NCBI GenBank assembly: GCA_024137785.1
Contig: JAHRHZ010000075.1
Coordinates: forward strand, 1,029,210-1,093,209
DNA length: 64,000 nt
Direction: 5' to 3'
Source: Ginglymostoma cirratum
Taxonomy: Eukaryota
Positions within the stretch are counted from its first letter, which is position 1. Each line of letters opens with the position of its first letter. Under the pieces are notes generated by a model. That model saw only the letters and a program-made list of their open reading frames with translations. It was not told the DNA's origin and ran no database searches. The position numbers and the translations under genes were made by a program. Positions 976-63,330 of this stretch are shown in pieces.

Positions 976-1113
976 AAAAACCGAAAGAACCGCAGGTGCC
1001 GTAAATCAGAAACAAAAATAGAAATTGTTGGGAAAGCTCAGCGGGTCTGGCAGCATCTGGCAGGAGAGAAATCAGAATTAACGTTTCGAGTCCAGGGACC
1101 CTTCTTCAGAGCT
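976..1113 (-). mobile_element. Short Penelope-derived non-autonomous repeat, subfamily A
   Basis: Shares the core aaacagaaatt..gg.aaagctcagc.ggtctggcagcatctg with copies at 1548, 8783, 11235, 23175, 44084, 44233 and 49229. Possible imperfect TSD ctgctcctg (961-969) / cttctcctg (1112-1120). Confidence 0.75.
1076..1113 (-). ncRNA. Minimal hammerhead-ribozyme-like motif
   Basis: Minus strand: AGCU CUGAAGA A GGGUC CCUG GACUC GAAAC GUU AAUU. Conserved core boxes and stem II are present; stem I is imperfect. Confidence 0.5.
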
Positions 1114-1547
1114 TCTCCTGTACATTGGGCGAAAACCAGTGGACAAACTCCAATATTTTTGTAATGTGAAGAGGGGATATCAGAGGGAAAAGGGGGTGCT
1201 GGGGGTGATAAGAGAGACAGAGCGGTTCAAATTATAGCATTTGCTTAATCCGTGAGCAACACACAGGCTGGGGGTTGGGTATCGGTTATAACTTCAAAAT
1301 TTATGAATGAGAAAACGACGCTGCAGCGCCATTCGAGTAGGTTTTCCTTGGTGTATTAATCATCAGTAGGGAAGGCGGGGAGGCTGAGAGAGGCTCCGAT
1401 TGATACCCAGCCCTTTCTAATGAAGAACAGAAACAATGTTGAGTCCCGATTCTTTCCGAGGCGCAACAGAGGTCGAGTGCGATGTAACACCTTTCTCCTT
1501 GTGTTAACTATTCTGTTCGCGGAGAATTCATACTCATTTCTCCCCCA

Positions 1548-1730
1548 AATAAAAACAAAGAATTGAGGGTGCTGAAATCTGAAACAAAAACAGAAATCTG
1601 GCAGCATCGGTGCAGCGAGAAACGGAGTTAGCGTTTCGAGTCCAGTGACCCTCCTGAAAATGTCTCTCTCCACAGATGCTGCCAGAGCTGCTGAGGTTCC
1701 CTACATATTGCTACCTGTTTTTGTTTCTCA
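1548..1730. mobile_element. Penelope-derived repeat, fold-back (inverted) form, subfamily A
   Basis: Left arm ...ctggcagcatcggtgcagcgagaaacggagttagcgtttcgagtccagtgaccc; right arm ctctccacagatgctgccaga...ctgtttttgtttc is its reverse complement. Confidence 0.7.
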
Positions 1731-8782: not shown

Positions 8783-8990
8783 AAAATAAAACAAAATATT
8801 GTAGATGCTGGAGATCTGAAATAAAAACAGAAATTGCTGGAGAAAATAAGTAAGTCTGGCAGCAGCAGATGTGTTGATGTCTTTAGTCCAAAGAAGCTCC
8901 AAAGAGTTACCAGACTGAAATTGTTAACTTTTTTTGTCCTCTCTTTCCACAGATTCCACCAGATCTGCTTTTTTGTTTTTGTTTTTTGTT
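8783..8990. mobile_element. Penelope-derived repeat, fold-back form
   Basis: gatgctggagatctgaaataaaaacagaaattgctggag...ctggcagcagc, followed by gaaattgttaac...ccacagattccaccagatctgc. Confidence 0.7.
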
Positions 8991-10744: not shown

Positions 10745-11645
10745 TGCAAAATGCTGAAAATAAACAACAGATTCAGCAGCATCTGAGAAGAAAAAGACAA
10801 GTTTTAACATTTTAATAGAGAGTATTTCTTATACTGAAAGATGAAGTCAAACCATATTAAATGGCTGATAAAGACGAAGGGGATAAGTGAATGACTGATA
10901 AAGGCTGCAGATCACATTTGCTGAAGTTACTTCAAAGAATCACCTAATGAGGTTAATAACCTGCGAACAGATTCCTTCCACAACACTCTTGTTCAGTTTT
11001 CTTTCACTCCTACTACCTCCACTACTCTTCTTCACAGGCACTTTCTCATCAAATTATTGCAGCTGCAACACCTGTCCATTCATTTCTGGCCAGACGAATG
11101 TTCAATGCCCAGATAATTTCTGTATGAGGTGATGATTAACAATTATTTCTTCTAATATAATATATTGCTCACAATGCAATACTTCATGCATCAGGAAGTC
11201 CAAGTGCAGACTGGGAAATAGCTTTACACTCATAACAAAACAAAGAAGTGTGGTTACTGGAAATCTGGAACAAAACAGGAAGTGCCGGAGAAACTTAGCA
11301 GGTCTGGCAGCATCTGTGGAGAGAAAGCAAAGTTGACATTTTGAGTCCAGTGAAGAAAGGCCCCTCTGCCTTCTCTCCACAGATGTTGCCAGACCTACTT
11401 AGTTTCTCTAGCAATTTTTGTTTTAGTTTCAACTGTGTATTCAAATACATTTTGTCTGTTAGGGTAGCTTCTCAATTCTTTATCATTTCATGTAAGCATT
11501 ACATTCCCATTTGAAAATTTCCTTCTTTAACCTGCTACATTAACCAAACCAAGCTCAGTGTAAATGCACAAGCAGCCTTCTATCCTTTTGCCTTGGTAGT
11601 CTGAAGTTGCCTAGCTTTACCACTGACTTTAATTGCTTCAGATCT
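10745..11645 (+). mobile_element. Degenerate Penelope-like retroelement: GIY-YIG endonuclease remnant with inverted 5' terminal repeat
   Basis: Conceptual translation across frameshifts gives CNTCPFI (11065), SSNIIYC..C, KCRLGNSF (~11200) and LSFCLGSL...TDFNCFR (~11580-11642), matching the Penelope GIY-YIG region. An inverted terminal-type repeat lies at 10745-10815. Confidence 0.7.
11235..11430. mobile_element. Penelope-derived fold-back repeat nested in the older Penelope remnant
   Basis: agcaggtctggcagcatctgtggagagaaag ... cttctctccacagatgttgccagacctact are inverted arms. Confidence 0.8.
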
Positions 11646-13586: not shown

Positions 13587-13760
13587 TATCAGCAGCATCA
13601 GAGGAGCAGGAAAGCTGCTGAAATCAGAGGAGCAGGAAAGCTGCTGATATTTATTTCAGCAGCTTTCCTGCTCCTCTGATGCTGCTTGGCCTGCTGTGTT
13701 CATCCAGCTCAACGCCTTATTATCTCAGATTCTCCAGCATCGGCAGCTCCTACTATCCCC
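13587..13760 (+). mobile_element. Penelope-derived repeat, subfamily B, with duplicated inverted 5' arm
   Basis: 13-bp TSD AAATATCAGTGAA at 13574-13586 and 13761-13773. Body agctttcctgctcctctgatgctgcttggcctgctgtgttcatccagctc. Confidence 0.85.
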
Positions 13761-15383: not shown

Positions 15384-15622
15384 GTTGGTCCAACCGTTCC
15401 ACCCCCCCCAACCCCGCCTCAGCCGTCTCTTTACCGGGTCGTGCGTCCGTTTGCTTTCCTTCGCCTCGACCCTCGTTTATATCCTTCAGGCTGAAAATTC
15501 ATGTCTTTTTATCACGCGTATTGTTTGTTTTCAAGTTGGCCGGACGGTACGTTGTGTCCGCAGTAAACCACTTTGTAGAAACGGCTTATGCGCATCTGGC
15601 ATCCAGTAGTGCGTTACTGATC

Positions 15623-15639
15623 AGAGAGAGAGAGAGAGA
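15623..15639. repeat. (AG)n microsatellite
   Basis: Direct reading. Confidence 0.95.
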
Positions 15640-22211: not shown

Positions 22212-22330
22212 AATTTCTGAAACAAATGCAGTAAATACTGCAGATGCTGGAAATCTTAAATTAAAACAAGGTTCTCGAGAAACTCTTCTGTGAAAAGAAG
22301 AAAGTTTACGTTTCCAGTCCAGTGTGATTT
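22212..22330 (-). mobile_element. Degenerate Penelope-derived repeat in GDF6 intron
   Basis: aaatactgcagatgctggaaatct...tttacgtttccagtccagtg. Confidence 0.6.
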
Positions 22331-22524: not shown

Positions 22525-22624
22525 NNNNNNNNNNNNNNNNNNNNNNNNNNNNNNNNNNNNNNNNNNNNNNNNNNNNNNNNNNNNNNNNNNNNNNNNNNNN
22601 NNNNNNNNNNNNNNNNNNNNNNNN
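22525..22624. other. Assembly gap (100 N) flanked by (GT)n and poly-G
   Basis: Direct reading; the true length is unknown. Confidence 0.99.
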
Positions 22625-23174
22625 GGGGGGGGGGAGGCGTGGGGGCGGGAGGGGAGTGGTGAGGTGAGGAAGTGCCTGTTTAAAATGCACATCTGCAACC
22701 CATATTAAACACTTCTTAGACTGTTGTTATAATATGCATAAGAGATTGCACTGTGGCTAAGAAGTGGAAGTTTACACACCGGCGGTTTCTTCATTCGTAT
22801 ATATAGGATCTAGTTTGGTAATTCGCTGCTTGGGATTGCAAGACCTTTTAAAGCGTCAGCTGAGCTCCTCTTAGCAATGTCGAACATTCAAAATGTTCGT
22901 ATCTGGGAGGCAAAGACAATTGAGCCCTTTTAATAATTACCTCGGCAGATTATTTGGATAAGGATTGGCTGCTATTTCTGAGGGAAATTCCCAAATCAGC
23001 GTCCTTTCTTTATGGCCCATTCAACAAAACGCTCTCAGACTCCAGAGTTTCAACCGCAATGGCACAGACAAACGACACATATGAAATATAGAGCACCACA
23101 ACTTGCAGACGGACTGGGCACGAAAAGTTAAACATGCTGGGCCGGTCCATTTCTGTTCAAGAAGCTGCAATGTT

Positions 23175-23327
23175 AAACCAACAGAACCGCGGATGCTGGA
23201 AATCAGAAACTAAAACAGAAATAGCTGAAGAGCTCAGCAGGTTTGGCAGCATCAGTGCGAGAGAAATCAGAGTTAATATTTCGGGCCCAGTGACCCTTCC
23301 ACTTCTTACCCCGCAATTTCTGTTTCT
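23175..23327 (-). mobile_element. Penelope-derived repeat, subfamily A, in GDF6 intron
   Basis: gcggatgctggaaatcagaaac...gagctcagcaggtttggcagcatc...cgggcccagtgacccttcc. Imperfect TSD gaagctgcaatgtt (23161-23174) / gaagctgaaatatt (23328-23341). Confidence 0.8.
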
Positions 23328-24158
23328 GAAGCTGAAATATTGGCTGGCAATAGTAACCTGGTAACGGCTCCAATAACAATTCACAAAGAGTTCGCGCGAA
23401 AACTTAACCCTGCAACTATGGAAACATGAAATCCAAGTTATCTTTAAGTTCCAGTTTCATAACCGTTTGCCGTATCCAAGTTTTATTGCGAGTTTGGGAA
23501 AAATCCCGGGGAAGCTATTTTGGGTTCAACCTATCTCGCCGTGCTTCCTCATAATTTATATGTAATTCAGCCATTTGAAAAGAAATGCACAATAGAACCC
23601 GAATATTAAATGGCAATGTGTTTATTACATGAACCATGTATCCATCGTGAACGTATTACTCTAGAAATGACGGACCCAGGCAGACTCGAGCTAGTAAAAA
23701 TATGCAGCTTCTGTTGAAAGTAGCTTTAAATCTTATTTGCTTGTAGCGATGTTAGGTTAAAAGCTTGTTTTAGTGTCAGCGATTCCTATCTGTCTAATTA
23801 GCACCAGAAGCACTGTGTTTTCCACATCTTGAAGCGGACTTTCCTTGAACTCATTGGGGCAACAGGGCGGTAGGCAACTCGACGCTTGTCTTCTGAATAT
23901 AAATCAGCGTTCCTTTTTTTTATTGGTAACTTGAGGTATTAACCTACTTGAGGTATTAACCTTTCTTCAAAAAATTAAAAGGGTTGTTCGTTTTCAATTC
24001 AGTGGGCTGGGGCTGCCAGTGGTGGAGCCTGTGATAAGATTCGTAAGTGAAAATTTCACCTTACTCATTGAGAGAAATCCCTTTGATTGCCAAATAATGA
24101 CTCCAGTTTATATCCAGCCTTTTAATGTCCGACTTGTGCTTTTTTTCTCTTTTTACAG

Positions 24159-25051
24159 ACGATGTTTTGCATTCACATTTAAGGCGGCAAAAATACTTGT
24201 TCGATGTCGCAGCGTTGTCGAGCAGAGAGGAGTTAGTCGGGGCCGAATTGAGGTTACTGAGAAAAACGCCGGAGCAATTTCGACAGACACTGTCTGGTCT
24301 CTACGACTTCAAACTATACTCCTGCCTCAGCGAGGGACAACCGTCCAAATTACTGCAGTCCCGCACGCTTCACATTCACCAGTCCAATACACAAGGATGG
24401 GAGGTGTTTGATGTCTGGGAAATATTTCAGTTTTTCCACTCTGCCCAGTTATGTTTTGAATTGAAGGTGACATCCAGCCAGAGCGAACGGGATATTGACC
24501 TGAGACAAATCGGGTTCGGACGGAAGGGGAGAACGCCCCAAGAAAGAGCTCTGCTGGTGGTTTTCACTCGAACTCGGAAAAGAGAGAACCTCTTCAGCGA
24601 GATGAAAGAGAAAATCAAATCCTCAGAGGGCTCCGCCGACGAGGAAGGCGAACGCCAGTTCAAAGCCAGGAGGAGGAGGAGGAGACGAACCGCCTTTACA
24701 AACCGCCATGGGAAGAGGCACGGCAAGAAGGCCAAGTCCCGATGTAGTAAAAAACCTCTCCATGTGAACTTCAAAGAGTTGGGTTGGGATGACTGGATAA
24801 TAGCTCCTTTGGACTATGAAGCTTATCACTGCGAGGGAGTGTGTGACTTCCCGCTCAGATCCCACCTCGAACCCACCAACCATGCGATTATCCAAACGCT
24901 CATGAACTCTATGGACCCGAACTCCACGCCTCCGAGTTGCTGTGTCCCCACTAAACTGAGCCCCATCAGCATCCTGTACATCGATGCGGGCAATAATGTT
25001 GTCTATAAGCAGTATGAGGACATGGTTGTAGAGTCATGCGGCTGCAGGTAG
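24159..25051 (+). CDS. GDF6: GDF6 coding exon 2: rest of prodomain, polybasic furin site and 120-aa mature TGF-beta cystine-knot domain
   Basis: Polypyrimidine tract plus acceptor ttttacag at 24158. G+AC restores the frame to [18 protein letters not shown]7 at 24668-24688 is followed by [41 protein letters not shown]...[37 protein letters not shown], with seven conserved cysteines. RHGKRHGKK points to GDF6 rather than GDF5 or GDF7. Spliced CDS is 1269 nt. Confidence 0.97.
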
Positions 25052-26900: not shown

Positions 26901-29511
26901 GTCTAAAAATCATAAATAATGATGTTTAATTCTTGTTGTGCCCAAGATAGAGAGACGTCTTTCATTGTCTACCTCAGATTATGTTACAATGTTTTGAATT
27001 TGATAGAAATTTGGCAAATTCACAAATCTTTTCCGATAATCTGGCGTAAATAGATTTTATTCTTACTGTTATATTCTCACTATTGCTGTATCATTAAATT
27101 TTAATTTGATCGATTTGTTTGTCATTTTTGGGTTCATTTCTAAAAAAAGAGTCTAGATAGAAACAAGGAATATGGAAGCTAACATATGAGAGAGGCTAAA
27201 CGACCAACTGGTTTGTCCGCACACCTTTAAATTGATAGATATAGCCTTGCTTTTAAGGGAAAGAGACTCATACGGCAATTGTCAGCAGGGTGTTGTAAAA
27301 TTGTCACTTTTTCAGATGTTTTCTTTATTTCGACACGTAATTTAGGTGTGAGGCTGGTAGCAGAGTGCATTTTCAATTATATTGGTGCAAGATAAATTCG
27401 TTGCCATTTGTATTTTAATCTTCAAAAACATATCAGAAAAAAATACAGTGACTACATTAGTCCTCCCCCGCCACCCCATTACTTTTCTATGTTTACTTGA
27501 AAGGTGTGTTATCATCAATCGAAACAGACAAGGGTGCATTTATATTGCAGCTATCCGCCTGGGAATGGGCCACAGTTTATATCAGTTTTGGTTTCGGCCA
27601 GATAGAACACCAGATCACTGTTTGGTTCCTACCTGACTAGAAGTATATTGTTCAAATCGAATTTTTGTCTTTGCTGGACATATTCGCAGGTTTAAATAAT
27701 GTCAGGTAGTTTCACAAAATGTTCAGGTGATTCAACATGATCGTTGAAGCACATTGCAACCCAGCTTGGACATGATAATGGAGCTAGGCTTCATCTAGTA
27801 TTGGATTAAACTTAACCCAAGCTGTTCAACACAGTTTAGCTTTGGTATCAGGGCAAGCCCTGACTTTGGGTTTGCGAGGACAACTGTGTGTGTGTGAAAA
27901 ATCACTGTATCAATAGTTAGCTTGTATTACAAATGCAACTGAATGTCATTTTCATTCAAACCATTCTGTGGCACAGAAAAACATTTAATCTTCCAATACC
28001 TACCCTCCCAATAATTAAATCAAAACGTACTTAGCTAAAATGATTTAGAAGTAATAAAACTAATAATGATAAACAAACCTAAAATAGTTAATACAACTAG
28101 GAGTCTAAAAGAGGATATCATATGTTTAGATCCCCTGTTTGTAAATTTAAACTTACATCATAAATTATCTAGGTACATTAATGGATGGGGGCACAATATG
28201 CATAAAGAATGGGCTCCAGGTACAGGCTGACTGATCAGACTTAGCTTTCACCTCTGGGTTCAAATCTAGAATGAGTGGATGAAGGACTTCTCTGTTTGTT
28301 GCATGTTAATGGGCCTTTGTAGCGTTGTTAATTTTTGTTGAAAGTATTCATTGAGGTTTGGTCATACAACATTTGATCATGGGGCAGTGTTTGAATTTAC
28401 ACATAGGGTACAGCTATGGCAGGGTAGCTGAAAATTGCAGAGCTATACCTCAGTGACAGTCAGTTCCAGAGAAACCACAGCCTAGTAAAATTCAGAACCA
28501 TCGTACTGTGATGAGAATTACTTCCAAAGATAGAGGAAGGATCAGTGCCCAGCAGCACAATGAGAGCACCAGGATAATTGTACCCTTATAGTAGGAGAAC
28601 TGTACTCAGTGAGAGTCCATGCTAGCAGAACTATGGCCTATTAAGAGTTAATACTTTCATGCAAGGAGGGATCAAATTGGGAACATGAACAGAAAAATTA
28701 AAAAAAAATCTTGGAAAGAAAGATTACTATATTGGGAGAAGCAACTTTCATACGGTATATAATTTCCTTTCATGAGGCTGTGCTGCTAACTTCTCTGATG
28801 TATGTTCCAAAGCATTTGTATTGTTTTCCAGGGGCTGACTCATATTATTTCTTTCTTTACATAAATTGGGTAGTTTCTTTATAAAAATGATTGTTATGGC
28901 AACCCAGGAGTTTTCTGTAGTCCCCAAACTACATGGAACACTGCATTGGTGATTCAGAAGTGGCCTGTTGAATCACAGTTACAATGGCAAGTCATGTAAT
29001 AGTGGTATGTCCTTTATTAGCCTGCAGGATGGCCACAGTTTACAGTTTCTTTTGGCCAAGTTGCAGACAGCCAGAGAAGTGGAAGAATGCAGGTGAATAA
29101 TACGAGTGTCATGTTATACTAGTTTCTCCTTGTTTCTAACAGTATTGTTTAGGCGATCCACTACCAATTCCTGGAGGACTGGCAATCCAAAGTGAAAAAA
29201 AGTTTCATAATTCTCAAAAATACTAGCAATCTTTATTTATATGGCATTTCTAACATAATAAAACATCCCAAAGGCATTTATTGGGAGTGCCATAAAGCAA
29301 ATTGTGACACTGTGCCACATAGGGAGGTATAACAATGGCTGGCCAAAAATGTTGATATTAAAGAGCCTCTTAAAGGAGGAAAAATTGGATGAGAAATGGA
29401 AAAGTTCGGAGAAAAAATTCCAGGGCATTGTGCCTTAACAGCCGAATGCATGGTTACTGATGGTGAAAAGATTAAAATAAAAATGCACAAAGAAAATAGA
29501 ATTGGAGTGAA

Positions 29512-29716
29512 AGATCACACAGTGTGGAACTGGAGGAACACGACAGGCCAGGCAGCATCAGAGGAGCAGGAAAGTTGACGTTTCAGGTCAGGACCTCCTT
29601 TAGAAATGTTCCGACCCAAAACATCAACTTTCCTGCTCCTCCAATGCTGCCTGGCCTGCTGTGTTCCTCAAGCTCCACACTGTGTTATCTCTGACACGAG
29701 CATCAGCAGTTCTTGA
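29512..29716. mobile_element. Penelope-derived fold-back repeat, subfamily B
   Basis: 12-bp TSD AATTGGAGTGAA at 29500-29511 and 29717-29728. Inverted arms acacagtgtggaactggagg... / ...cctcaagctccacactgtgt. Confidence 0.88.
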
Positions 29717-33125: not shown

Positions 33126-34632
33126 ACATCCAGAACTCGATAGTTTCCAAAGGCATATATGTATTTTAAGCAATGGTGGTGTGATTATGGCTATGGCAGA
33201 ATAAACTGACCTAGTATTCTAGTAACTATAATTTTACAGTGATAGCTCCTTAACAAAAGGCAGGGCCACTAGCTGGTTAGCAATGCATTGCAAACCGCAA
33301 TGGATTTTGCTGTGGCTCATTAACAGAGCATGACATTAACATATGCTTTCAGGTCCCTAAGAGGGCAAACAGGATGAGGAATTAGACCTGTCAAAGAAAG
33401 GATTTCTATTTAAAGCATCTTTGGTTACAATAATGTGACTGCACATAGATCTTTTTGAGACTGAAGCAACATCTGAAAGGACGTGAAGGAAACAAAATAG
33501 ACTCCAAGGGAAAAGAAGAGTAGGGAATACAGGGCAGATCAACTTCCAACTTTTAAGAAATAGAACCAAGACAGTAAACTTGTAGAAATGTATCTTGCTT
33601 GCTTTCAATGTGGCAAACCAGGCCCCAACAGAGGGAGAATTGATTTAGCAAGATACCAATGGTAAGGCTTTGCAGTCAGAACTGTTTCCATATTTTGAAA
33701 TGACCAAGCCCGGACTCAGTGTTGGGAGTGGGTCCAAATTTCTGCTGAGGCTTTTTCTAAAAACAGAGAGCGACTCCTTTTGCATCCTACGCTCCCAGAT
33801 ATGGAATAGATATTTTTTGAGATAAAGGGTGTTTTCAAATACTGCTTGCGGCAGAGATTGCTGATTGGCATGCCAAAGCAGGATGAATACTCAGGAAATA
33901 TTGGGAATATTGGTGTATAAAGGTTCCCCTTATAAGAATTCGCCTACACAATAAGCGTATCATGGGGCAATACCTTTCAGGGTTGTTCTGAACTTATCTA
34001 TAGCAGAAATGGTCGCGTTGTTGGAAAATGACTTAATGGAAAACCAGGTATTACACCTACAGGGTCAAATATAGTCTACAGGACAGAGGAAACTGGAAAG
34101 AACCAAAAAAAAATGCTATTCAACTCCAGCTGAAGATAACCTTAACATCCTACAGGATTGATAGAACCAATAGGATTAGGGAAATAGAAGGAAAGTCAGA
34201 GACTCTTCTGGAGGCTAACATTAATTAGTCCTTTCTCATTCCATTACCCTGGATAGAAAAGAGTCTGTTCTCAGTTTGTTCTTCAACGTACTGCTCTATA
34301 AAACCACCTCAAGTTCATTCCAATAATTTACCCACCATAGCATTTGTGCTCATTGTATTTGCAAGTAGATTGAAGTTACCCTTGTTACATGCATCTCTAA
34401 TTTCCTGATTTATACCACACCTTACGCTACAACCAGTGTTTATGGTCAACCACAAACTCCTACAAATGTTTGCTGCTCCTTAGCTCCACCCACGCAGATT
34501 TTGTACCTTATTTTAACAATCTAAGATGCTCTCTCATTAATGTACAGATTCCATCCCTTATTATCAATACTTCACCACTACCGTTCCTTTTTATCTGCAT
34601 GTCAAACAGAGCCTATAATCATAGAATCCCTG

Positions 34633-34728
34633 ATATAACAAGGTGTAGCGCTGGATGAACACAGCAGGCCAAGCAGCATCAGAGAAGCAGGAAAGCTGAC
34701 GTTTCGGGTCTAGACCCTTCTTCAGAAA
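34633..34728 (-). mobile_element. Penelope-derived repeat, subfamily B
   Basis: 10-bp TSD AGAATCCCTG at 34623-34632 and 34729-34738. Confidence 0.88.
34694..34728 (-). ncRNA. Minimal hammerhead-ribozyme-like motif (best-preserved core)
   Basis: Minus strand: UUU CUGAAGA A GGGUC UA GACCC GAAAC GUC AGCU. It has CUGANGA and GAAA boxes, a perfect stem II, a palindromic ACGU stem III and a GUC triplet. Stem I is weak. Confidence 0.55.
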
Positions 34729-36092
34729 AGAATCCCTGCAGTGCATTCAGCCCATCGAGCCTGCACTGACCCTCTGAAGAGCATCCCCCCAGTTCCAGCA
34801 GCCCCTCCCTCCCCCCACCTTAACTCCATAACCCCATATTTACCATGGTTAGTCCACATAGCCTGCACATCCCTGGTCACTACAGGCAATTTAGCATGGT
34901 CAATTCACCTAACCTGGGGGAGGTTTCGCTATTTATTACACTTCCAATTGGGACAGCCAAGATTGTCAATCTCCTATGCAGGTAGGGACAAACTGGGTCC
35001 CTTCTATTATTCATCCACCTTTTTGTTCATCTCAAAGATGAACCCCCCGCCACCTTGTGGACATCTTTTAACCAGACCAAACAAATTTATGTTTTAAGAG
35101 GAATCAATTTAATTAGGTTTTCTTGAGTTTACAAATAAGTGAGTATTAGTTACTAAAGGCAAGAAAAAGTAATAATGCAATATATATACACACAGGTGTA
35201 TGAGTCAATACCTGGATCTTTCACAAAGAGTGGGTAATAGAACGTTGATAACTGAACATTCAATTTCAGGATTTTTCACTATGCAGGTTAGCTGAAATTA
35301 TGTTGTCATGTTTCCTTTGATGCTGGCTGGCTGATGGCACTCACAGGGAGTTCTTCTCTTGTTCTGTTCCCTTTTGAGTGGCTTGCTTGCTTCAAGCACT
35401 CAGAGTGATCTAAGCTCTGCAGTCCAGTCATGAATAGTGGTCGACACCAGATTTCCAGCCTCTGAACTGCTTTTATCGTCACATTATTTATCTAGCATCT
35501 GATGTTGTCTTTGTGAAATAAAAATGCAGGAAAAAGAAGCAACCAATTTGTATGTGGCAAGGTCCCACAGACAACAATTGGATACACAAATAGATAATTG
35601 GTGTAATTTAATCAGTGGAATTTTGTTCGCGATGACAGAACCACATGTGGTCACCACTTACTTTTTAGTTTTTAGGAGCTGGCACCCATATCCTGGAGGG
35701 TCTTTGACTGTACTTACCTGGGCAAGTAGAGAATGTTCTATCACACACCTGACTTATGCCCTGTAGACAGTGGTGCAAATTTGCAGGGTGGATGTAAGTC
35801 ACTTGCTTCCATGCACCAGCCTCTAAACCTCTCCTGCATTCAGAGTATTTAACTGATTAAGCTAGTTAAAATTTTTGCTTAATGATACCTCCTAGGTTGT
35901 TGCCTGTGAGGGATTTGACAAAAGAAAAGCCATTGACTGTCGAGAAGAAATGGCTAGAGTGTCTCCTGTGGAGATTGGTCAATACCTGGCACTTGTGTGG
36001 AGCAAATGTTATTTGCCACTTTCCATCATTGATCATAAATTCTAGGTAGAAGATGGGAGAGTAATAGTTTTGGTAACTAGAATACATATATA

Positions 36093-36300
36093 GAGTCATA
36101 GAATCATACAGCACGGAAGCAGACCCTTTGGTCCAACCAGTCCAAGCCAACCATAAGCCCAAGCTAAACTCGTCCCACCTGCCTGCTTCTGGCTCATATC
36201 CCTTAAAACCTTTCTCATCCATGAACTTATCCAAATGTCTTTTAAACATTGTAATTGTGCCCACATCCACCAGTTTCTCAGGAAGTTCATTTCAAATGTG
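36093..36300 (-). mobile_element. CR1 LINE 3' end fragment
   Basis: ORF 35866..36270 begins with CR1-like TITMFKRHLDKFM; ctatgactc tail. Confidence 0.82.
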
Positions 36301-37564
36301 AATAATCAAACTCTGAATACAGGTCAAAATAGAAAGATTTGGAGCTGGGCATAGGAATACAGATATAAAACAAAATTAATATTGATAAAAACAGATCGCA
36401 GCTTGCATTGTGTTTATGACCTGCGGGTTAAATGGTGAGCAATGTCAAATATTTAAAATAATTTTTAAGATTATATAAGGGCAGATCATGGCTTGCATTA
36501 AAGGCAAGTGTCTCTTATATAAGGGATTACAGTAACTTGTTTTACAACATCAAAGCATCAAAAGCAGCTAGTCCTCCTTATATACCTTGGAAGTCAAATT
36601 TTATAAAAATCTGTAATAGATAATTGATTTACCACTCAGTTTCTTTTTCATTGTTCATCTCAGCTCTTAAAAGTATATGTAAATTTGTTCATTGTTTGTC
36701 TTAGTTCTCAGGAATACATGTAATTTTATTCCTTGTTTTTATCTCCTTTCACTCCCAATTTAATGTTATTCCATTTAAGCCTGGAGGCTGGGATCCAGGT
36801 TGACATTTTTTTTACAACTCCCTTCATTAGAATTCAGTATCAGATTATGGTGAAACAAGCTTTGAGGAGTGGAATGGATTTTCTTTGGTTTTCCATTTTA
36901 TGCAGAAGCTGAAATCTGACTCGTCTATACTCCGTGGAGAAACCTAGCTAAAAATGAATTGCATTTAACTGTTCTCAGAACAGTTTTTTAAATACACCAC
37001 AATTTTAGAATGTTCACTCATTTGAAGTGTTCTTAGTTTAGGTCATTTAAAATACACATTTCCTCAATGCCCTTCAGTCATCCTGTAACATATCTAATCC
37101 ATTCAGCTAAAGGGTTAGCAAGAATATCTGTTTTAAGACTTATGTCTCAGGTGTGCTTTACAGGAATTTAGAAATTGAAACTTGGATGCTCTCACATTGA
37201 ACTTATTGAAGAGCTTTGTGAATCCCTGTTAAGGTTAAAATGTTATTTTTGTTTTATAGGCTGTTGTTATAACTCATACTGGTTCTTGGGTCACAGTTTC
37301 CTCTACTATTGAATCTTTTCATTGATTGTGACCCATCGACAGCCCAAAATCTGTTTTGCATTTCTGTGCCCATTTGTGCAGTTCATCTACATTTGTTATC
37401 AATTGAATTACAGGTCAGGTGAGCTCTTCTCAGTGTTAAATTAACAGAAAACCCTTGCTGATTAAAGTAATCTCTTGTTGGCAGTGCTTCTATTGAGTAG
37501 GCATATTTAGTGCAAATTGGGCATAAGGCGACCTCCTATGCTCTTCCGTCCGGTTTGGGAGAGT

Positions 37565-37688
37565 GAGTGATCTAGACTCAAAACGTTAGCTTGCCCTCTC
37601 TCCATGGATGCTGTCTGATCCACTGTGATCTCCAGCATTTGTTGTTTTCTGAGCAGATTCCAGTATCTGCACTAATTTGCTCCTTTAT
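37565..37688 (+). mobile_element. Penelope-derived repeat, divergent subfamily
   Basis: ctagactcaaaacgttagcttgccctctctccatggatgctg...ctccagcattt...ttccagtatctgca. Confidence 0.65.
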
Positions 37689-43200: not shown

Positions 43201-43980
43201 TCCCCTGTGACAAATGGTTAGTCCTGTAGTTGAACTTAAAGGAGAAGTAACAAACCAGTGGTCTACCACAGGGCTTAGGGTTAGGCCCCTTGCTGTTTAT
43301 GGTATATGTTAATGATTTGGACTTAAATATGGGAGGCATGTTTGGGAAATTTGAACATAAAACAATGTTGGCTGGGTAGTTGAAAGTGAAGAGGACAGCT
43401 GTTGGCTGCAGGATAATATCTATGGTTTGGCTGATGGACAAAAAAAGTGGTAAGTGGAACTCAATCTGGAGAAGTGTGAGGAAATGCACTAGGGAGGGCA
43501 AAGAAAAATGGGAAGTCAATAATAAACAGGAGGATATCGATTTCAGTAGAGGAAATGAGAGACCTGGAGTGCATGTCCACAGGTCCTTGAACATGTCAGA
43601 ACAGGGAGAGAAAGTTGTAAAGAAAGCTAATGGAATGCTTTCACTTCTTGAATATGGTATAGATTACAAAAACAGAGATCTGATGCTGGTATTGTCTAAG
43701 ATGCTGGTTTGGCCACAGCTGGAATTTTGTACGCAGTTCTGGTTACCACACTACAGGAAGGACTTAATTGCTCTGGAGAGAGTACAGAGGATAATGTCGC
43801 CAGGGCTTGAAACTTACAGCAATGAGGAAAGCTTGAATAGGCTAGTGTTGTTTTTCTGAGAAGAGAGAGGACTAAAGGATTGAGGTGAATGAAATTATGA
43901 GGGATCTAGATAGATCAGACTGGAAAAACTCCTTTTCCCCTAATGGAAGGATCACTTACAATGAGGTACAGATTTAAAGT

Positions 43981-44220
43981 GTTAACATTTTGGGTCAAGT
44001 AACTCTTCCTCAGAACTCTAATCCCAGTCTGCGACCCTTCATCCATAGTATTATGCATAACAGCATTTCAAACATTCATCCCCAGTTATGAGGAAGGGTC
44101 ACTCGACCTGAAACATTAACTCTGACTTCTGTCCAAAGATGCTGCCATATCTGCTGAGTTTTTCCAGCAATTTCTGTCTTTGTTTCTGATTTACAACATC
44201 TGCAGTTCTGTTGGATTTTG
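43981..44220. mobile_element. Penelope-derived insertion 1: inverted motif, captured CR1-like fragment, then sense copy
   Basis: Bounded by CAGATTTAAAGT (43969-43980) and CAGATTTAAGGT (44221-44232). Confidence 0.8.
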
Positions 44221-44232
44221 CAGATTTAAGGT

Positions 44233-44361
44233 CTCTGATGAAGAGTCACTGGACTTGAAACGTTAACTTTGCTTTCTTTCCACAGATGCTGCCGAACCTG
44301 CTGAGTTTCTCCAGCAATTTCTGTTTTTGTTTCTCCAGTATCCACCGTTATTTTGTTATGA
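44233..44361 (+). mobile_element. Penelope-derived insertion 2 with hammerhead-like 5' end
   Basis: CUGAUGA A GAGUC ACUG GACUU GAAAC GUU AACU at 44235-44268. Bounded by CAGATTTAAGGT and CAAATTTAGGT (44362-44372). Confidence 0.8.
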
Positions 44362-44592
44362 CAAATTTAGGTGATTGGTGGAAAGATTAAAGGGCACATC
44401 AGGAATAACTTTATCCCAGAGGGATTAGAATAGTTAGATAGTTATTTTTGATCAGTGCAGACTCAATGGGCCGAAGGGCCTTTTTCTGTTTTGTAAACCT
44501 TTATAACTCCAGTGTGGTAGATGTCTGGTATTTGCTTAACAACAATGGGAATATGGCAGTATAAACTCTAAGTTCACTAGCTCAAGTACTTT

Positions 44593-46810
44593 TAGTCATA
44601 GAATCATATAAAACAGGAAGAAGCTATTCACCCTACTGTGGCCAAGCTGGTCATCATAACAACCATTTACTCTAATCCCAGTCTCCAACCCTTGGTCCAT
44701 GGTATTTTATGCTATAGCACTTGAAGCATTGATCCAAAACTTCTTAAAGGTATTGAGGCTTCCTGCCTTTACCACTCTCTCAGGAAGTGAGTTTCAGACA
44801 AACCTTTTCTTTGGCTGAAAATTGTTTTCCTCAAATACCTTCTGAGTCTCCTACCACTTAACTTAAAGATATGCTCTCTGCTTATCAACCCTCCTACTGA
44901 ATTATTCGATCTTTGCTCATCAATTTTGTACACTATATTTAGGTCATCCCTCTGCCTTCTCTGCTCTAAGGTAAACAACACCAGCCTATCTAGTCTCGCT
45001 TTATGGCAGAACCTCTCCAGTCCAGGCAATATCCTGGTGAATTTCCTCTACATCCTCTCTAGTACAATCTCATCCATCCTACAGTGTTGTATCTGCAACT
45101 GCACACAGGACTCCAGCTGTGGCTTAACTATTATTATATACAGCTCCTTCATATCAGCCCTGCTGTTATAATCAATGCCTCAACTAATAAAGGCAATTAT
45201 TACATGTACATTCTTAACCACCTTATGCAATTGTCCTGCTGTCTTCAAAAATCTGTGGACAGGCACATAAAGGTCCATCTGTTCCTCTGTATTTCCTTGG
45301 GGCTTACCATTCATTGTGAACCCCCTTGCTTTCTTAGTCTCCTGGAAATACGTCACTTCACACTTTTCAGGATTAACTTCCATTTGTCACTGTTCAGCCC
45401 ATCTGATCAACAAGTCTTTATCCTTCGGTAATTAAAGGCTTTCCTCCTCAGTATTCACCACACCACCAATTTTCATGACATCTGCAAACGTACAAATTAT
45501 AATCCTACATTAATCTCCAGATCATTAATGTGCACCTTAATGGACAGAGTATCAAATCCCACAGTATGCTACTGGACACAGTCACAAAAATAGCCTTTCA
45601 TTGTCATCTGTTGCTTCTTTCACTAAGCTAATTTTGGATCCAATTTGCCAATTGGTCTGGATCCCATTGTCTTTTTCCCACTTGACCAGTCTCCCACGCA
45701 AGACCTTGTCAAAAGCCTTACTAAAGTCCACACAGATGACGCTTCCCTCCTTTACACATCTCTTCAAATTTAATCAAATTTGTTAACACCATCTCCCTTG
45801 AGAAAGACATGCTGATTACCCTTAATTAATTCTTGACTATCCAGATAGAGATTAATTCTGTCCCTCAGAATTCTACTGGATTTCCTAATATTGATTTAGA
45901 CTCACTAGCCTGAAATTTACTGGTTTATCCCTACCTCCTTCTTGAATAATGGTACCAAATTAGCTGTCCTCCAGTTGTCTGCCACCACTCCTGTGGCCAG
46001 AGAGGATTTGAAAATGATTGTCAGAGACCTGTAATCTCTTCCCTTGTCTACCACTTATAGCCTGGGATTCTTCTCATCCATGCTCAGAAATTTAGCCACT
46101 TTTAAATCTACTAAAACCATTAGTACCTCCTCCATCTCAAAACTAATTTCTTCAAGTCTCACCAACTCCAGAAGTATATAACAGAATCTCTGAATAAATT
46201 GAAAATAATATAATAGTTTCCCCTCCCTGAATTCTAGACCTATATCAACCTTTCTTATTCTGAATACAGATGTAAAGTACTTATTTAAGACCTCACTTCC
46301 ATCTTCCAGCTTCACACACAGGTTGCCATTTTGGTCCCTCTTTCCCTGGTTATCCACTTGCCCCTAACATATTCATAAAATGCCTTTGGATTTTCCTTTG
46401 TTTTACCCGCAGTTTTTTTTATGCCCCCTCTCCAATCTTCTACATTTTCATCCTTCTTTTTCTCCATGACTATTTGGGAGGCCATAGTACATTCCCAGAG
46501 ATGTTATTGCTCGCTTTGTCTAAGATTCTGTCCATACGGTCTCAACCGAGGAACTTTCCAAGGTTCTCCTTATTATTCCTCCTTATTGCAGGGATTGACT
46601 TCTTGATCAATATTGTGGCACAACCTCCTCCACTCCATCTCACCTGAAGGTTCTATAGGTTGAAGTATTGAGTGGACAGTGCTGTCCATCCTCAAACATT
46701 TCTCTGTGAAAACAATGGTATCACATCCCTATATGTTAATCAGCACCCTGAACTCATCTGCCTTACATATAAGATGCCTTGCATTAAGTAAATGCTGTCC
46801 AGCCTTGCCA
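44593..46810 (-). mobile_element. Degraded CR1 LINE ORF2 with internal deletions
   Basis: ORF fragments VDFSKAFDKV (45582..45767), NPEKCEVTYF (45180..45383), SEVLNKYFTSVF (46055..46357) and RLVLFTLEQRR (44769..45029); tagtcatagaatcata tail. Confidence 0.9.
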
Positions 46811-49149: not shown

Positions 49150-52100
49150 GCAGGTAAGAGGTAAACAGAGGGCAGTGATGAAGGAGCCTGAACCCTTGAG
49201 CTTGTCTAACAGGTTTGAGATTTTTGCTGTTCTGAGGAAGAGTCACTGGACATGAAACATTAACTGATTTTTTTCTTCACAGATGCTGCCAGACTTGCTG
49301 AGCTTTTCCAGCAACTTCTGTTTTTGTTCCTGATTTACAGCATCTGCAGTTCTTCCAGTTGAGATTTTTGCTCCCATGTGGATAAGAGTGGGGGCTGGAG
49401 GGAGGGTGAGCAAACTGCTCATGGCACCATGGTACAAGGAGCCAGTAAAGATGGGGGAAAAATAGAAATGTAGTCATAATTAGGCATAGTATAGTCGGGG
49501 AAATAGACATGGACCAAGAGTCCAGGACGCTGCATTACCTGCCTGGTGCCTGGGTTCAGATGTCTCATCTGGGCTCCAGAGGAACTTGGAATGGGAGCAG
49601 AAGAGCCCAGTTGTTGTGGTCCACATGGATACTAATGATATAGTTAGAAAAGGATAGAGATTCTGCTAAAGGAATATGAGCAGGTAGGGGCCAAATTAAA
49701 AAGCAGATTGAAAAACAATAATCTCTGGATCACAACTGAGCCACGAGCAAATTGACGCAGGATCAACAAGATTGAAGAGGTAAATGCATGGCTTGTTGAT
49801 TGGTGTAACAGAAATGGGCTCAAGTTCATGGACATTGGCAACTAGTTCTGGGGAAGGAGGGAAATGTTCTGATGGGATGTGCTCCATTTGAATCGTGCTG
49901 GAACCAGAGACCTTATAAATTGCGGAACTAGGGCTGTGGGTTCAGCTACATGGAAAACTATGGAAAATGTTAAAAGTGTGGGGTTGGGATTAGCAGAGGC
50001 TATTAACGTTTCCTGAGCCAGTACTAGAACCAAACTGTGGAAGGTGTCAGGAATCAATTTTGGGTTAGTTTTTAGGGGAACAACCATGAGAAAGGGAACA
50101 GTCAATGCAGGACTGTGTAGGGCGTTGTACTTAAATACATCCAGTACATGAAACAAGGCAAATGAGTTTGTAGCACAGACTGAAATTGGCAGGTTCCATG
50201 TTGTGGTATCACAGAGATATGGCTGCAGGAGGACCAGGACTGGGAACTAAATATCCAAGGATACACACTCTATTGAAAGGACAGGTAGATGGGCAGAGAG
50301 GTAGAGTTGCCTTGTTAGTAAGGAATGAAATTAACTCGATGTCAAGAAGTAATATAAAGTTGAAATGTGTGTGGGTACAGATGAGAAACTGCAAAGGAAA
50401 ATCATCCCTGATGGAGTTGCATACAGGCCTCCCAGCAGTAGTTAGGACATGGGGAAGAAAATAAATCAGAAGATAGAAAACACATGTGAGAAGGGCACTA
50501 TTGCAATAATCACAGGGGACTTCAATATGCAGGTGGACTGGGAAAATCAGGTTGTTAGCAGATCCCAAGAAAAAGAACTCATGCAATGTGTATGAGATTT
50601 CTTTTTGAATATTTTGTGGTAGAGCCCACCAGAGAACAGGCTATTCTTGATTTGCTGATGTGTAATGTTGCAGACTTGATTAGGGAGCTTAAGGTGAAGG
50701 AACTCCTAAGGAAGCAGTGACCATAATATGTTAGAAATCACCCTGCAGTTTGAGAGGAAGAAGCTGGAATCAGATGTAGTGCTATTACGATTGAGAAAAG
50801 GTAACAATAAAGATATGAGGGAGGAGCTGGCCACAGTTGATTGAAAGGGGAGACTGGGAAGATGGTAGAACAGCAATGGCAGGAGTTTTGGGGGGAGTGT
50901 GGTAATTAGAGACACTGCAGAAATTCATTTCAAGGAAGAAGGAACATACTAAGGGGAGGACAGCGTAGCCATGGCTGACGAGGTAAGTCTGGGACAGCAT
51001 AAAAGCGAAAGACAAAGGATACAAAGTAGTCAAGATAAATGGAAAGCTAGAGGATTAGAAAGCCTGTAAAAACTAGCAGGGGATAACTAAAACAGCAATA
51101 CGTGGGGAGAAGATGAAATGTGAGAGTAAGCTAGCTAGTAGTATCAAATAAGATTGCGAGATTTTCTTTAGATTATATAAAAGGTAAGATGGAGACAAGT
51201 ATGGACATTGGGCCATTGGAAAATGAGGTTGGAGAAGTAGTAATAGGGAACAGAGAAACGGCAGAGGAACTGAATAAGTACTTTGCATCAGTCTTTGTGG
51301 TGGAAGACACCAGCAGCATACAAGAACTCCAAGGGGGTCGGGGCTGAGGTGAATGTCGTGGCCATCACTAAGGAGAAGCTGTTGAGGAAGCTGAAGGGTC
51401 TGAAGGTGTATAGATCACCTTAACCGGACAAATTAAACCTAAGAGTTCTGCAGGAGATTTTTGAGGGGTTTAGAGAGACATTGGTCGTTATCTTTCAGGA
51501 ATCACCGGAGTCGAGGAATATTCCAGAGGACTGGAAAATAGTCAATGTACCACCCCTGTTTAAGAAGGGAAGGAGGTAGAAAATGGAAAAGTACATGCTG
51601 GTTAGCCTGACCTCAGTCACTGGTACGATTTTAGAGTTCATTACTAAGAATGAGATTTGGTGAATACTTGGAAGTGCATGATAAAATACTATTGAGTCAA
51701 CACAGCTTTGCTGGGGGGATGTCATGCCTGACAAAGCTGTTAGAATTCTTTGAGGAGGTAATGAGCAAGAGCCAGTGAATGTGATCAATTTGGATTTCCA
51801 GAAGACTTTGACAAGGAGGCACACTGGAGGCTGCTAAATAAGGTAAGAGCACGTGTGTTAGGGGTAGTGTGCTGGCATGGAGAGATGAGTGGCTGAATGG
51901 CAGAAGGCAGAGAGTGGAGCTAAAGGGAATCTTTTTCAGGATGACAGCTGGTGACTCATGGAGCTCTGCAGTGATCCACATTGGGACCACAACTCTTTAT
52001 GTTATACATTGACGATCTGGAGGAAAGAACTGAGGGCATGATTACTAACTTTGCAGATGACACAGGATTAGGTGGAGGGTCAGGTAGTTTTGAAGAGGTG

Positions 52101-52965
52101 GGGCAGCTGCAGAAGTACTTGGACAGAGTGGGCAAAGAAATGGCATATGTAATATAATGCAGGAAAGTGTGAGGTTCTGCACTTTGGTAGGGAGAACAGA
52201 GACAGGCTATGTTCTAAACAGGGAAAGGATTCAGAAATCTGAAGTACAAAGGGACTTGAGAGTTCTAGTTCAGGATTCTTTTCAGTTTAACATTCAGATT
52301 CAGTTGGCAGTTAGGAAAGCAAATGCTTTGTTAGCATTCAATTCAAGAGGACTAGAATGCAAAAGTAGAGATGCATTGCTGAGCTTGTATAGGAACTCTG
52401 GTCAGAATACACTTGGAATATTATGAGAAGTTTTGGGCCATATATCTAAGGAAGGATGTGTTAGTGTTAAGGGCCAGTCCAGAGGAGATTTACAAGAATG
52501 ATCCCAGGGATGAAGGGCTTGTCATATGAGGCACAGTTGATGACTCTGGGTCTGTACTCCATGGAGTTTAGAAGAATGAGGGGAAATCTGATTGAAACTT
52601 ACAGAACACTGAGACACCTGGATAGAGTAGACGTGAAGAAGATGTTCCCACTAATAGGAGAGACTAGAGTCTGGGGGCACAACCTCAGAATGACGGGACG
52701 ATCCTTTAGAGCTGAGATGAGGAGGAATTTCTTCAACCAGAGGGTAGTTAATCTGTGGAACTCATTGCCACAGAAGGTTGGGTGGCCAAGTCATTCAGTG
52801 TATTTAAGACAGAGATGGGTAAGTTCTTGGTTGATAAAGCTATCAAGTGTTACAGCGAGAAGGCAGGAGGATGGGGAAGTATATCAGCTATGATTGAATG
52901 GCAGAGCAGACTCAGTGGGCCCAGTGGCCTAATTCTGCTCCAATATCATATGGTCTTATGGTCTT
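49150..52965 (+). mobile_element. Long decayed CR1 LINE: ORF1 SGNH/esterase part plus ORF2 APE endonuclease and RT
   Basis: ORF1-type LSNRFE, LPGA and VVVHMDTNDI. ORF2-type ALYLNT, GDFNMQVDW, GSSDHNM, YFASVF, FADDT and RNFFNQRVVNLWNSLPQ. Many stops and frameshifts. (TATGGTCT)n tail near 52950. Confidence 0.93.
49229..49358 (+). mobile_element. Penelope-derived repeat, subfamily A, inserted in CR1 ORF1
   Basis: 14-bp TSD TTGAGATTTTTGCT at 49215-49228 and 49359-49372. Starts GTT CTGAGGA AGAGTC ACTG GACAT GAAAC ATT AACT. Confidence 0.9.
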
Positions 52966-61499: not shown

Positions 61500-62200
61500 T
61501 GAGTGTTGTTGACCTTTCTCATGGGCATGTGAGGTACCTGGAGTGAAAGGAATGAGTGAAGCTGTAAAGTATGTTAATTTGAGGAGACCCCTGGTGAAGA
61601 ACAATACAAAAATCTGTATGTGGTCTTAGCACTACAATGTCAATACCACTAACCTCTCCCACCCTCTTGACATCTTGGATCCTCCTGGTGCATTCCTCAT
61701 TTCTGTTTTAAATGAGTGACCCTTTATTTTTCAGTGGTGACCTCTGAATCACCCACAAACAGAAACATTCTTTCCACATCCAGTATGTGAAGCCCCCTCA
61801 GGACTTTATATGAGTCCATACATGGTCAGATGGTGAAGGGGAGTCTTGAGCCTGGTTGACAGTTCCTCAGAGTATCCTAAGATAGTGGAAATGGCTAACT
61901 CATACCAAATTTATATGCCACGGCTGTTGCCTGGAAAGTGTCTACTGCGAGGATGTTCTGTTCATGGTCACTTACTAAGCACACGTTGATGGAATAATAG
62001 CCCTTGTGGTTTCAATACATTTTTTGATTAATTTGCAGCATCTACTGAGCTGTATACGTGCAGTCGATAGCTGTTATGTCATTGAGAATTCCAACAGCCT
62101 GACAAAGTCATGTGCTCACCCCTCCTGCTTCTATCTGGCAAGATAGAAGGCAACGTAAGTCTTACTACCTCTATACAGGGGCTGCCACACCTCTCTGATG
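61500..62200 (-). mobile_element. Second fossil Harbinger transposase, convergent with the Myb-like remnant
   Basis: Minus strand: IREV../LYRGSKTYVAF (~62200-62145), AIDCT (62071-62057), NHKGYYSINVCLVSDHEQNILAVDTF/PGNS (~62011-61921) and RLKTPL. Interrupted by a CR1-like fragment at ~61630-61810. Confidence 0.82.
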
Positions 62201-62779
62201 TAGTGACCTGTAGTTTTATTTCAGATTTCCAGCATCTATAGCATTTTGCTTTTAGGTGATAGACATCACCCTGGTAAAGCTACAACTTGCAACTACTTGC
62301 CTGCTAAGAACTCAAAGCAGTATGTGATAAACAGAGCCAGGCGTTTCCAAAGCAATGGGTTAGATCTAAGTTCTGCAGACTTTCCACATCCAGTCATGAA
62401 TGATTGTTGGCAATTAAGTAGCTGATAGACATATTTCAATTTACAATGATAGGGGTGCCTAGCACATTAGTGCAAAAGACAACGATTCTCAGACAGCATT
62501 GTCTAAACCTGAGACATCAAACACTGGGAAGCACAAGGTTCGCAGATGCATGGCAGTATTTCAACCGAAAAGTTCTTCTCCAAGCTACACACCAACCTGA
62601 CTAGGAACAATATCCCATTCCTTCACTGTTGCTGGATCAGAATCCTGGAACTCACTCCCTAATAGCACTGTAGCAGTTAAAGAAAGCAGCTCACCAGCTC
62701 TTCTCCAGAACAGTTAATGATGGGCAAAACATCCTGGCCTAGCCAGTGATGCCCACATTCCATGAGAGGATTTAAAACA

Positions 62780-63330
62780 TTAATAGGAACATTGGAGCAA
62801 GAATAGGCCATTTAGCATCTTGAGTCAGAGATAGTAGGAACTGCAGATGCTGGACAATCTGAGATAACAAGGTGTAGAGCTGGATGAACACAACAGGCCA
62901 AGCAGCATCAGAGGAGCAGGAAGGCTGACGTTTCGGGCCAAGGGTCTAGGCCTGAAACGTCAGCTTTCCTGCTCCTCTGATGCTGCTTGGCCTGCAGTGT
63001 TCATCCAGTTCTACACCTTGTTATCTTAGCATCTTGAGTCATTTCAGTGAGATCATGGCCGATCTGTGGCCTAGGTGCAGATACCTGCCTTTGTGTCAGA
63101 TCCCTTAATACCTTGGCTGAACAGAGAATTATCTATTTCAGAGTTAAAATTAACAACTTATTGAGGATCCACAGCCATTTGTGGAAGAGAGTTCAAAACA
63201 TCTACCAACCTTTCTGTAGAAGTGCTTCCTAACTTTGATCAGATCACCCTTAACCTTCTAAATTCTAGAGAAAATGGGTCTAATTTGTATAATTTCTCCA
63301 CGTAACTTAACTCTTGAAGTCCAGGCAAGC
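62780..63330 (-). mobile_element. CR1 3' fragment interrupted by a fold-back insertion
   Basis: taggaacattggagcaagaataggccatttagc...gagatcatggccgatctg...agagttcaaaacatctacc. Confidence 0.72.
62828..63025. mobile_element. Penelope-derived near-perfect fold-back repeat, subfamily B
   Basis: 16-bp TSD TTAGCATCTTGAGTCA at 62812-62827 and 63026-63041. Arms 62862-62939 and 62949-63026 around a 9-nt loop. Confidence 0.92.

Follow-up and report, generated by a model that had tools for sequence, protein, structure and literature searches.

Hammerhead-bearing short repeats in a Ginglymostoma cirratum contig most likely derive from truncated ends of Penelope-like elements

The short repeat at positions 34633-34728 of the DNA analysed here (a 64,000-nt stretch of Ginglymostoma cirratum contig JAHRHZ010000075.1, assembly GCA_024137785.1, referred to below as the window) contains a motif resembling a minimal hammerhead ribozyme, and similar motifs recur nearby. 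This raises the question of whether such repeats form a dedicated family of tiny non-autonomous retroposons, as the initial annotation proposed, or whether they are what is left of longer elements. The repeats are real, and they most likely belong to a known kind, namely the pseudo-LTR (pLTR) ends of Penelope-like elements (PLEs) with minimal hammerheads, truncated and inert.

The window was searched with a minimal-hammerhead descriptor consisting of CUGANGA, an optional extra base, a stem of at least 4 bp, GAAA and NUH. Exactly three core-complete sites were detected (34698-34725 and 1080-1109 on the minus strand, 44235-44264 on the plus strand); these are the very copies that had been called intact, and a re-scan recovered all the other motifs reported earlier at their places. 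Among 200 dinucleotide shuffles, 186 contained no minimal-type site and 14 contained one, while more than one was never seen. All three core-intact copies have the CUGANGA and GAAA boxes, the NUH triplet and an extra A after CUGANGA; helix III is absent, and the self-complementary ACGU (palindromic positions 15.1-16.1) is found in each of them. The motif, including its extra A, equals the consensus of PLE minimal hammerheads, NNN CUGANGAH G..C GAAAN NUH NNN, given with the extra nucleotide in Fig. S3 of Cervera and de la Pena (2014, PMC4209133), and its assignment to the PLE-type minimal type I hammerheads was correct. Shared with the hammerheads of metazoan EN+ PLEs, as far as the accessible text of that study describes them, are CUGANGA with the extra nucleotide, G10.1-C11.1, GAAA-C-G-U-H and palindromic 15.2/16.2.

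Pairing is strongest in helix II, which comprises at least 4 bp: across eight arms of subfamily A (defined below) 92.5% of the stem II cells are paired, compared with 59% of the stem I cells, and the whole structure pairs in 78% of cells, whereas slid controls reach 8-46%. The first stem II pair, scored in ten arms, is G-C in five, G-U in four and A-U in one. The two-nucleotide 'UA' loop suggested for stem II in subfamily B had to be abandoned, because 2 nt are unable to close it, and this stem is taken to consist of 4 bp around a 4-nt loop. Stem I reaches 3 bp at 43981 and 49229 and 4 bp at 44084, and in the core-intact copies it never runs for 3 bp without interruption (2 bp in the B copy at 34694; 1 bp followed by a mismatch in the A copies at 1076 and 44231). 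The proposal that the flanks of subfamily A form stem I therefore holds in full at 44084, the sole copy with a perfect 4-bp stem, but not for the core-intact A copies, and at 44084 itself C3 and the helix III palindrome are gone. No hammerhead family was found among the 30 matches of an Rfam scan (E up to 5); matches to miRNA models, all below the gathering score, include inverted copies. A motif pattern scan of viral contigs gave 0 matches. The 21 pattern matches in metagenome contigs were rejected as chance, the A and B models matching just one of them, marginally (E 0.006) and over the pattern itself.

Folding of the focal copy as a monomer gives a best structure in which the core CUGA pairs with UCAG across the cut site (-7.9 kcal/mol), compared with -1.5 kcal/mol for the hammerhead fold in a program that ignores core contacts. 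The focal copy is expected to be inactive on its own. Published data describe no cleavage for a single schistosome motif and low cleavage for dimers (PMC4209133), dimer cleavage by Lunse et al. (as cited by PMC6765202), and cleavage in one of nine Xenopus dimers (Li, Clavereau and Pollet 2026, bioRxiv 10.64898/2026.07.22.740005). Cofolding of the focal stem II palindrome (34706-34717) predicts an intermolecular 12-bp duplex, which a common variant at 34709 makes imperfect. Folding z-scores of five whole copies and of the adjacent pair lie between -1.59 and +1.96, so that a stable tail structure is unsupported.

Profiles built from the copies themselves extend the catalogue to 16 insertions with 24 arms (Table 1), most of which retain at least a remnant of the motif. 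The copies listed before were all real, but that list was incomplete. Together the insertions occupy 2,392 bp, or 3.7% of the window, at a density of about one per 4 kb. The focal span proved to be, as claimed, an insertion between two 10-nt TSD copies. Describing the whole group as TSD-flanked is appropriate for the seven of 16 insertions with clear TSDs of about 10-16 nt (976, 13591, 29511, 34633, 43981, 49229 and 62830; p ≤0.011 against a null of 1,500 random pairs), but one is borderline (23171, p 0.035) and in eight none is apparent.

Table 1. Positions in the window of the repeat insertions, of the parts of the focal hammerhead motif and of the neighbouring host gene exon.
Feature	Position	Strand	Remarks
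Minimal type I hammerhead motif, focal copy	34694..34728	-	Descriptor, published consensus
Focal motif, core	34719-34725	-	Extra A 34718; G12 34705
Focal motif, stem II	34706-34717	-	12-nt perfect palindrome; stem I just 2 bp
Focal motif, GUC triplet	34698-34700	-	Predicted cut between 34698 and 34697
B insertion, single arm, tail-less (focal copy)	34633..34728	-	Starts 3 nt before C3
TSD of focal copy, 10 nt exact	34623..34632 and 34729..34738		Null p 0.011
A copy, core intact (1080-1109), tailed	976..1113	-	TSD 11/13 match, p 0.011, overlaps stem I
A head-to-head inversion	1547..1729	-	Tail on one arm; core gone; clear TSD absent
A inversion, decayed, short second arm	8783..8970	-
A-type decayed fragment	10750..10813	-	nhmmer E 0.0019
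A inversion, core gone, one-armed tail	11230..11431	-
B insertion, two short inverted arms, coreless	13591..13757	+	13-nt exact TSD (13574 / 13761)
A copy, decayed, GDF intron, antisense	22232..22324	-
A copy, GDF intron, antisense	23171..23301	-	Begins within core; TSD borderline, p 0.035
B inversion, tail on + arm only	29511..29712	+	TSD 29497 / 29714, 13/15 match
Decayed divergent copy	37557..37680	+	A model E 1.6e-12
Composite insertion	43981..44219	+	TSD 43967 / 44219, 12/14 match, p 0.003
Composite part, inverted 38-nt hammerhead arm	43981-44018	-
Composite part, piece of other repeat	44015-44081		67 nt
Composite part, A copy	44084-44219	+
A copy, core intact (44235-44264)	44232..44363	+
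A copy, damaged in stem II and helix III	49229..49360	+	14-nt exact TSD (49215 / 49359)
A fragment, decayed, recognisable by tail only	62155..62252	+
B inversion, tail on - arm only	62830..63029	+	16-nt exact TSD (62812 / 63026)
Last exon, GDF5/6/7-family host gene, open frame	24101..25051	+	TGF-beta propeptide and mature domains

The form of the insertions is as informative as the motif they carry. Seven of the 16 are head-to-head inversions, each with its centre at a different place, and the other nine are single arms. A 3' tail of about 30-40 nt is present on 14 of the 24 arms; by alignment, which gives no tail for arms 8902 and 10750, five further arms end at the tail start and five end earlier, and there are two alternative 3' ends, 30-40 nt apart. 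Four inversions have long arms on both sides (1547, 11230, 29511 and 62830), and in each of them the tail is found on exactly one arm and the other arm stops at the tail start; none of the seven inversions is two-tailed. TSDs, inversions and the one-armed tail are textbook marks of Penelope insertion. An optional tail on one inverted pLTR and TSDs of 8-10 bp have been described for PLEs (Arkhipova 2013, PMC3846280; Craig 2021, PMC8557442), and the tail has been traced to two RT start sites in the RNA downstream of the hammerhead (Frangieh 2024, PMC11167929). With the insertions described in the accessible text of these studies, our repeats share the inversion, the 30-40 nt tail on one arm, the TSD, unrelated sequence captured between arms and insertion beside an earlier copy; they differ in that only the pLTR end is present here. 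In Anolis and Adineta the pLTR and tail include the ORF start, whereas here a 1-nt indel near the tail separates subfamily A from B and no protein match was found.

Insertion beside an earlier copy concerns the pair at 44084 and 44232. A target of about 12 nt occurs three times around it, at 43967, at 44219 and near 44362 (the last by eye, with one gap), pointing to two insertion events at the same site, and the 44232 copy is probably the second insertion at the same target rather than one half of a tandem dimer made in one step. The 67-nt repeat piece enclosed in the composite is 78% like 44669-44735. The pair had also been considered as a ready dimer ribozyme, which was ruled out, the first core being broken.

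At the opposite end of the arms the picture is mixed. About seven arms have their start no more than 5 nt upstream of C3, crowding at -2 to -5, many others start scattered within the motif, and none of the 24 was seen to extend far upstream of the hammerhead.

The claim of two subfamilies, with GUU and GUC triplets, is borne out by separate profiles. Subfamily A is about 135 nt long, mostly with GUU and a 4-nt loop (mean pairwise identity 0.74, eight arms), and subfamily B is about 130 nt long with the tail and has GUC (0.80, six arms). They are homologous, the A model matching the focal B copy at E 7e-10; the two have core, extra A, G10.1-C11.1 and ACGU in common and differ in loop and linker. 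The copy at 37557-37680, in which loop and linker also differ, possibly represents a third subfamily. Within the copies, on the other hand, G12 is lost in four of ten A arms, and non-CpG core cells are off the majority in 3 of 40 cases versus 158 of 891 tail cells (Fisher p 0.13; A arms, with the four decayed arms 37557, 62155, 22232 and 10750 omitted from the conservation figures). Core conservation, one of the checks proposed for this family, is evident between subfamilies but shows no significant excess over the tail within copies, and the companion check, covariation, gave a score of 0.218 that 270 of 500 shuffles matched, with two-sided change in one of nine pairs, in a sample of only eight old A arms. 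With these two outcomes, half of the refutation set out for the family in the initial annotation holds within the window. Core selection within copies is not detectable and their decay appears neutral. A core that is constant between A and B and yet decays in the copies fits selection that would have acted on active parents, followed by neutral decay after insertion.

Contigs of four public sequencing runs were aligned to 34570-34790 at 80% likeness (X1, 95,424 contigs; X5, 3,349; X9, 2,824; X20, 255). Their depth at the focal stretch is not a copy number. X1 also spans unique flank, many X5, X9 and X20 contigs sit on a different neighbouring repeat at 34744-34787, and some X1 differences, joints and loose ends are uncounted. 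Pieces reach the core (34660-34725) in all three DNA-type runs. A variant at 34709, turning U-A into U-G and keeping the pairing, accounts for 74% of the X1 depth, 91% in X9 and 97% in X5, and one at 34696, turning the stem I pair U-G into U-A, for 2% in X1 and 84-93% in the other runs. G12 is changed in 16% of the X1 depth, compared with 17%, 13% and 18% at the CpG neighbours 34706, 34701 and 34700. The neighbouring repeat at 34744-34787 is itself of high copy number and starts just past the TSD; the agreement of 0.5-0.7 among its loose ends (X9, X20 and X5) marks it as a fragment of a longer element.

The loose ends of the hammerhead repeat itself pile up in X1 at 34728 (at least 1,836) and 34729 (at least 1,233). 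Their agreement is only 0.34, hence the upstream sequence is not common to most copies. The majority line at 34728 nevertheless opens with about 11 G-rich letters before passing into A/T background; we estimate that about a tenth of the 34728 contigs would need these letters, and eight of them, in the same register, also precede the A copy at 44084, where five are compatible with the adjacent repeat as well. These letters hint that a minority of copies may continue into a shared upstream sequence. Among the opposite-strand (inversion) joints listed for X1, seven of nine start at 34726-34729. Direct head-to-tail joints from 34729 to 34635, with a 95-nt period, occur in at least 14 X1 contigs, and at least 22 more step back by 76-100 nt with a spacer that is unknown; the joint spacers that are listed are unrelated sequence.

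Taken as a whole, it is probable that the repeats are 5'-truncated 3' ends (pLTR stumps) of longer PLEs, in at least two subfamilies and now probably inert. This reading is supported by the identity of the motif with the PLE consensus, by the TSDs, inversions and optional tail, by the very high abundance and by a decay that does not spare the core. From PLE biology it is assumed that a GIY-YIG endonuclease would nick the target and that the RT would begin at one of two positions within the RNA, both downstream of the hammerhead; which of them is used would decide whether the copy has a tail. The RT would then copy back through the uncleaved hammerhead and, in most cases, stop or change template on reaching the ribozyme's 5' edge or just within it, and the product would be a stump of 100-140 nt, often with an inverted second arm. 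To cut after GUC or GUU, the hammerhead of the parent element would have to be paired with a second one through the ACGU palindrome or be assisted by the PLE protein; no cleavage is predicted for single genomic stumps. In the PLE studied by Frangieh (PMC11167929), the ribozyme is reported to cut only with PLE protein present, hammerhead mutants leave insertion unchanged and it is mostly uncleaved RNA that serves as template in vitro; what the hammerhead does in PLEs is still treated as open (PMC8557442, PMC11167929).

The distribution of ends is read here as the result of a longer parent being steeply truncated from its 5' side, although smooth random truncation does not predict their pile-up at the ribozyme edge. 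Nor was a parent seen nearby. The initial annotation had named a shark Penelope RT/GIY-YIG as the mobilising protein, and no Pfam match to either family was found in 111 open frames, 103 of them frames of at least 48 aa within 2 kb upstream of the arms (eight antisense to the GDF exon omitted) and eight other long frames; only TGF-beta families passed the cut-off. This is a weak test, since LINE-like frames were missed too: those at 3261-3842 (-), 43380-43859 (+), 52471-52893 (+) and 35866-36291 (-), which we take to resemble CR1/L2-type LINE C-termini, have no Pfam match. Comparison of a 41-aa tail frame with longer proteins, likewise a weak test, gave 34 candidates, none at E ≤0.01.

The alternatives differ in what they make of the 5' edge. 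If a PLE protein retroposed, in trans, the transcripts of short master copies consisting only of hammerhead and tail, as in a dedicated non-autonomous family, then the crowding just upstream of C3, the inversion joints at the same edge and a density reached with no coding remnant found would all be natural; pLTRs are reported to be able to act in trans (PMC3846280), and such PLE derivatives are known (PMC8557442; bioRxiv 10.64898/2026.07.22.740005). Against this origin, no determinant of an RNA 5' end was seen, and cleavage would remove the core rather than retain it; many arm starts are scattered inside the motif; and most PLE insertions are described as 5'-truncated with a single terminal repeat (bioRxiv 10.64898/2026.07.22.740005). 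It is the minority of copies seemingly sharing upstream sequence that leads us to favour stumps over a dedicated family, which is the point where we depart from the earlier proposal and which we regard as unlikely, though the most serious of the competitors. A bolder version, and a clearly less credible one, is that B, and perhaps A, is a self-propagating ribozyme retroposon of 95-130 nt, among the smallest, its 5' end fixed at stem I, which would form direct head-to-tail dimers, pair via ACGU and the palindromic helix II, and reach about one per 4 kb through copying by a Penelope RT.

Fixation of the 5' end would follow directly if dimer hammerheads released units of 95-130 nt from tandem transcripts and the PLE RT made one round of copying on the circles formed from them, as in a miniature retrozyme, because closure of the circle sets that end. 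The direct joints in X1 point the same way, as do tandem hammerhead repeats in one chondrichthyan (bioRxiv 10.64898/2026.07.22.740005) and the retrozyme circles demonstrated in axolotl (PMC7229834). Yet the direct joints, at least 14, stand against at least 3,069 loose ends at 34728-34729, and the unrelated spacers are what re-insertion at one site predicts. Moreover, the window contains no tandem array with a complete hammerhead per unit, its only adjacent pair having a TSD-like spacer and one broken core; two 3' ends would require two different circles; the published animal retrozyme monomers are canonical, not minimal (PMC7229834); and the B motif is predicted to misfold. We consider this route very improbable. 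Still further from the evidence is the idea that the repeats are MITE- or tRNA-SINE-type elements whose hammerhead likeness is incidental. Several copies are hairpin-like and match miRNA models below the gathering score, and covariation in eight arms does not exceed shuffles, as such an origin would allow; but the palindrome centre differs from copy to copy, nine of 16 insertions are single arms, TSD length is variable, and every core base, the extra nucleotide, G10.1-C11.1 and ACGU match the PLE consensus in both subfamilies, which makes a chance resemblance extremely unlikely.

Truncated PLE ends also agree with what has been reported elsewhere. Cervera and de la Pena counted about 4,000 minimal hammerhead motifs in coelacanth and about 9,000 in Xenopus, few of them within full PLEs and most of them single elements that are probably truncated PLEs (PMC4209133). 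As in their set, stem I is short, thousands of singles are dispersed and opposite-strand pairs occur (there 100-700 bp apart); helix I there has about 3-5 bp (2 bp in Drosophila), compared with 2 bp in the focal B copy. Unlike that set, as described in the accessible text, B has a fully palindromic stem II, the copy density here looks higher, and no link to an ORF was found here. With non-LTR retrozymes (PMC7229834; bioRxiv 10.64898/2026.07.22.740005), which are said to derive from pLTRs, the repeats share shortness, lack of coding capacity, type I hammerheads, relation to PLE pLTRs and dispersed monomers. Those retrozymes form tandem arrays with a complete hammerhead per unit, to which PMC7229834 adds canonical ribozymes and circular RNAs, whereas the repeats studied here are mostly single or inverted, shorter and minimal. 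Cartilaginous fish do not appear among the minimal motifs in the Fig. S3 text and Table S1 of PMC4209133; the 2026 preprint surveys PLE-pLTR hammerhead repeats across vertebrates, one chondrichthyan among them (mean unit 363 bp), and PLEs are reported to be expanded in whale shark (bioRxiv 10.1101/443036). In the literature covered, to which most subscription papers, Repbase and Dfam do not belong, no paper on this repeat family in a shark was found. The novelty is lower than first supposed, because the motif class with its extra nucleotide was described in 2014 and PLE-pLTR repeats have been surveyed in the preprint.

The focal copy lies about 9.6 kb downstream of the GDF exon, on the opposite strand. 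The best solved relative of the product encoded at 24101-25051 is GDF5 (E 1e-67), and the GDF5/6/7-family gene has two exons (14972-15706 and 24101-25051) with a gap of 100 N in the intron (22525-22624). No link between the hammerhead repeats and this gene was seen. In subfamily A, the linker (44260-44288) and the tail (44320-44340) look by eye like splice acceptors, with a pyrimidine run followed by CAG, one of them right after the hammerhead. Sense-strand intronic A copies could be exonised; both copies in the GDF intron are antisense.

What do these repeats tell us about the elements from which they derive? If they are stumps, as is most likely, they add examples of a cartilaginous-fish type to an RNA class described in 2014, and they show that PLE stumps make up a large share of the DNA analysed here. 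The very many natural insertions offer a further opportunity: their 5' and 3' ends could test the two-start-site model of PLE reverse transcription in vivo, and the same ends would show whether the hammerhead sets the point at which copying stops.
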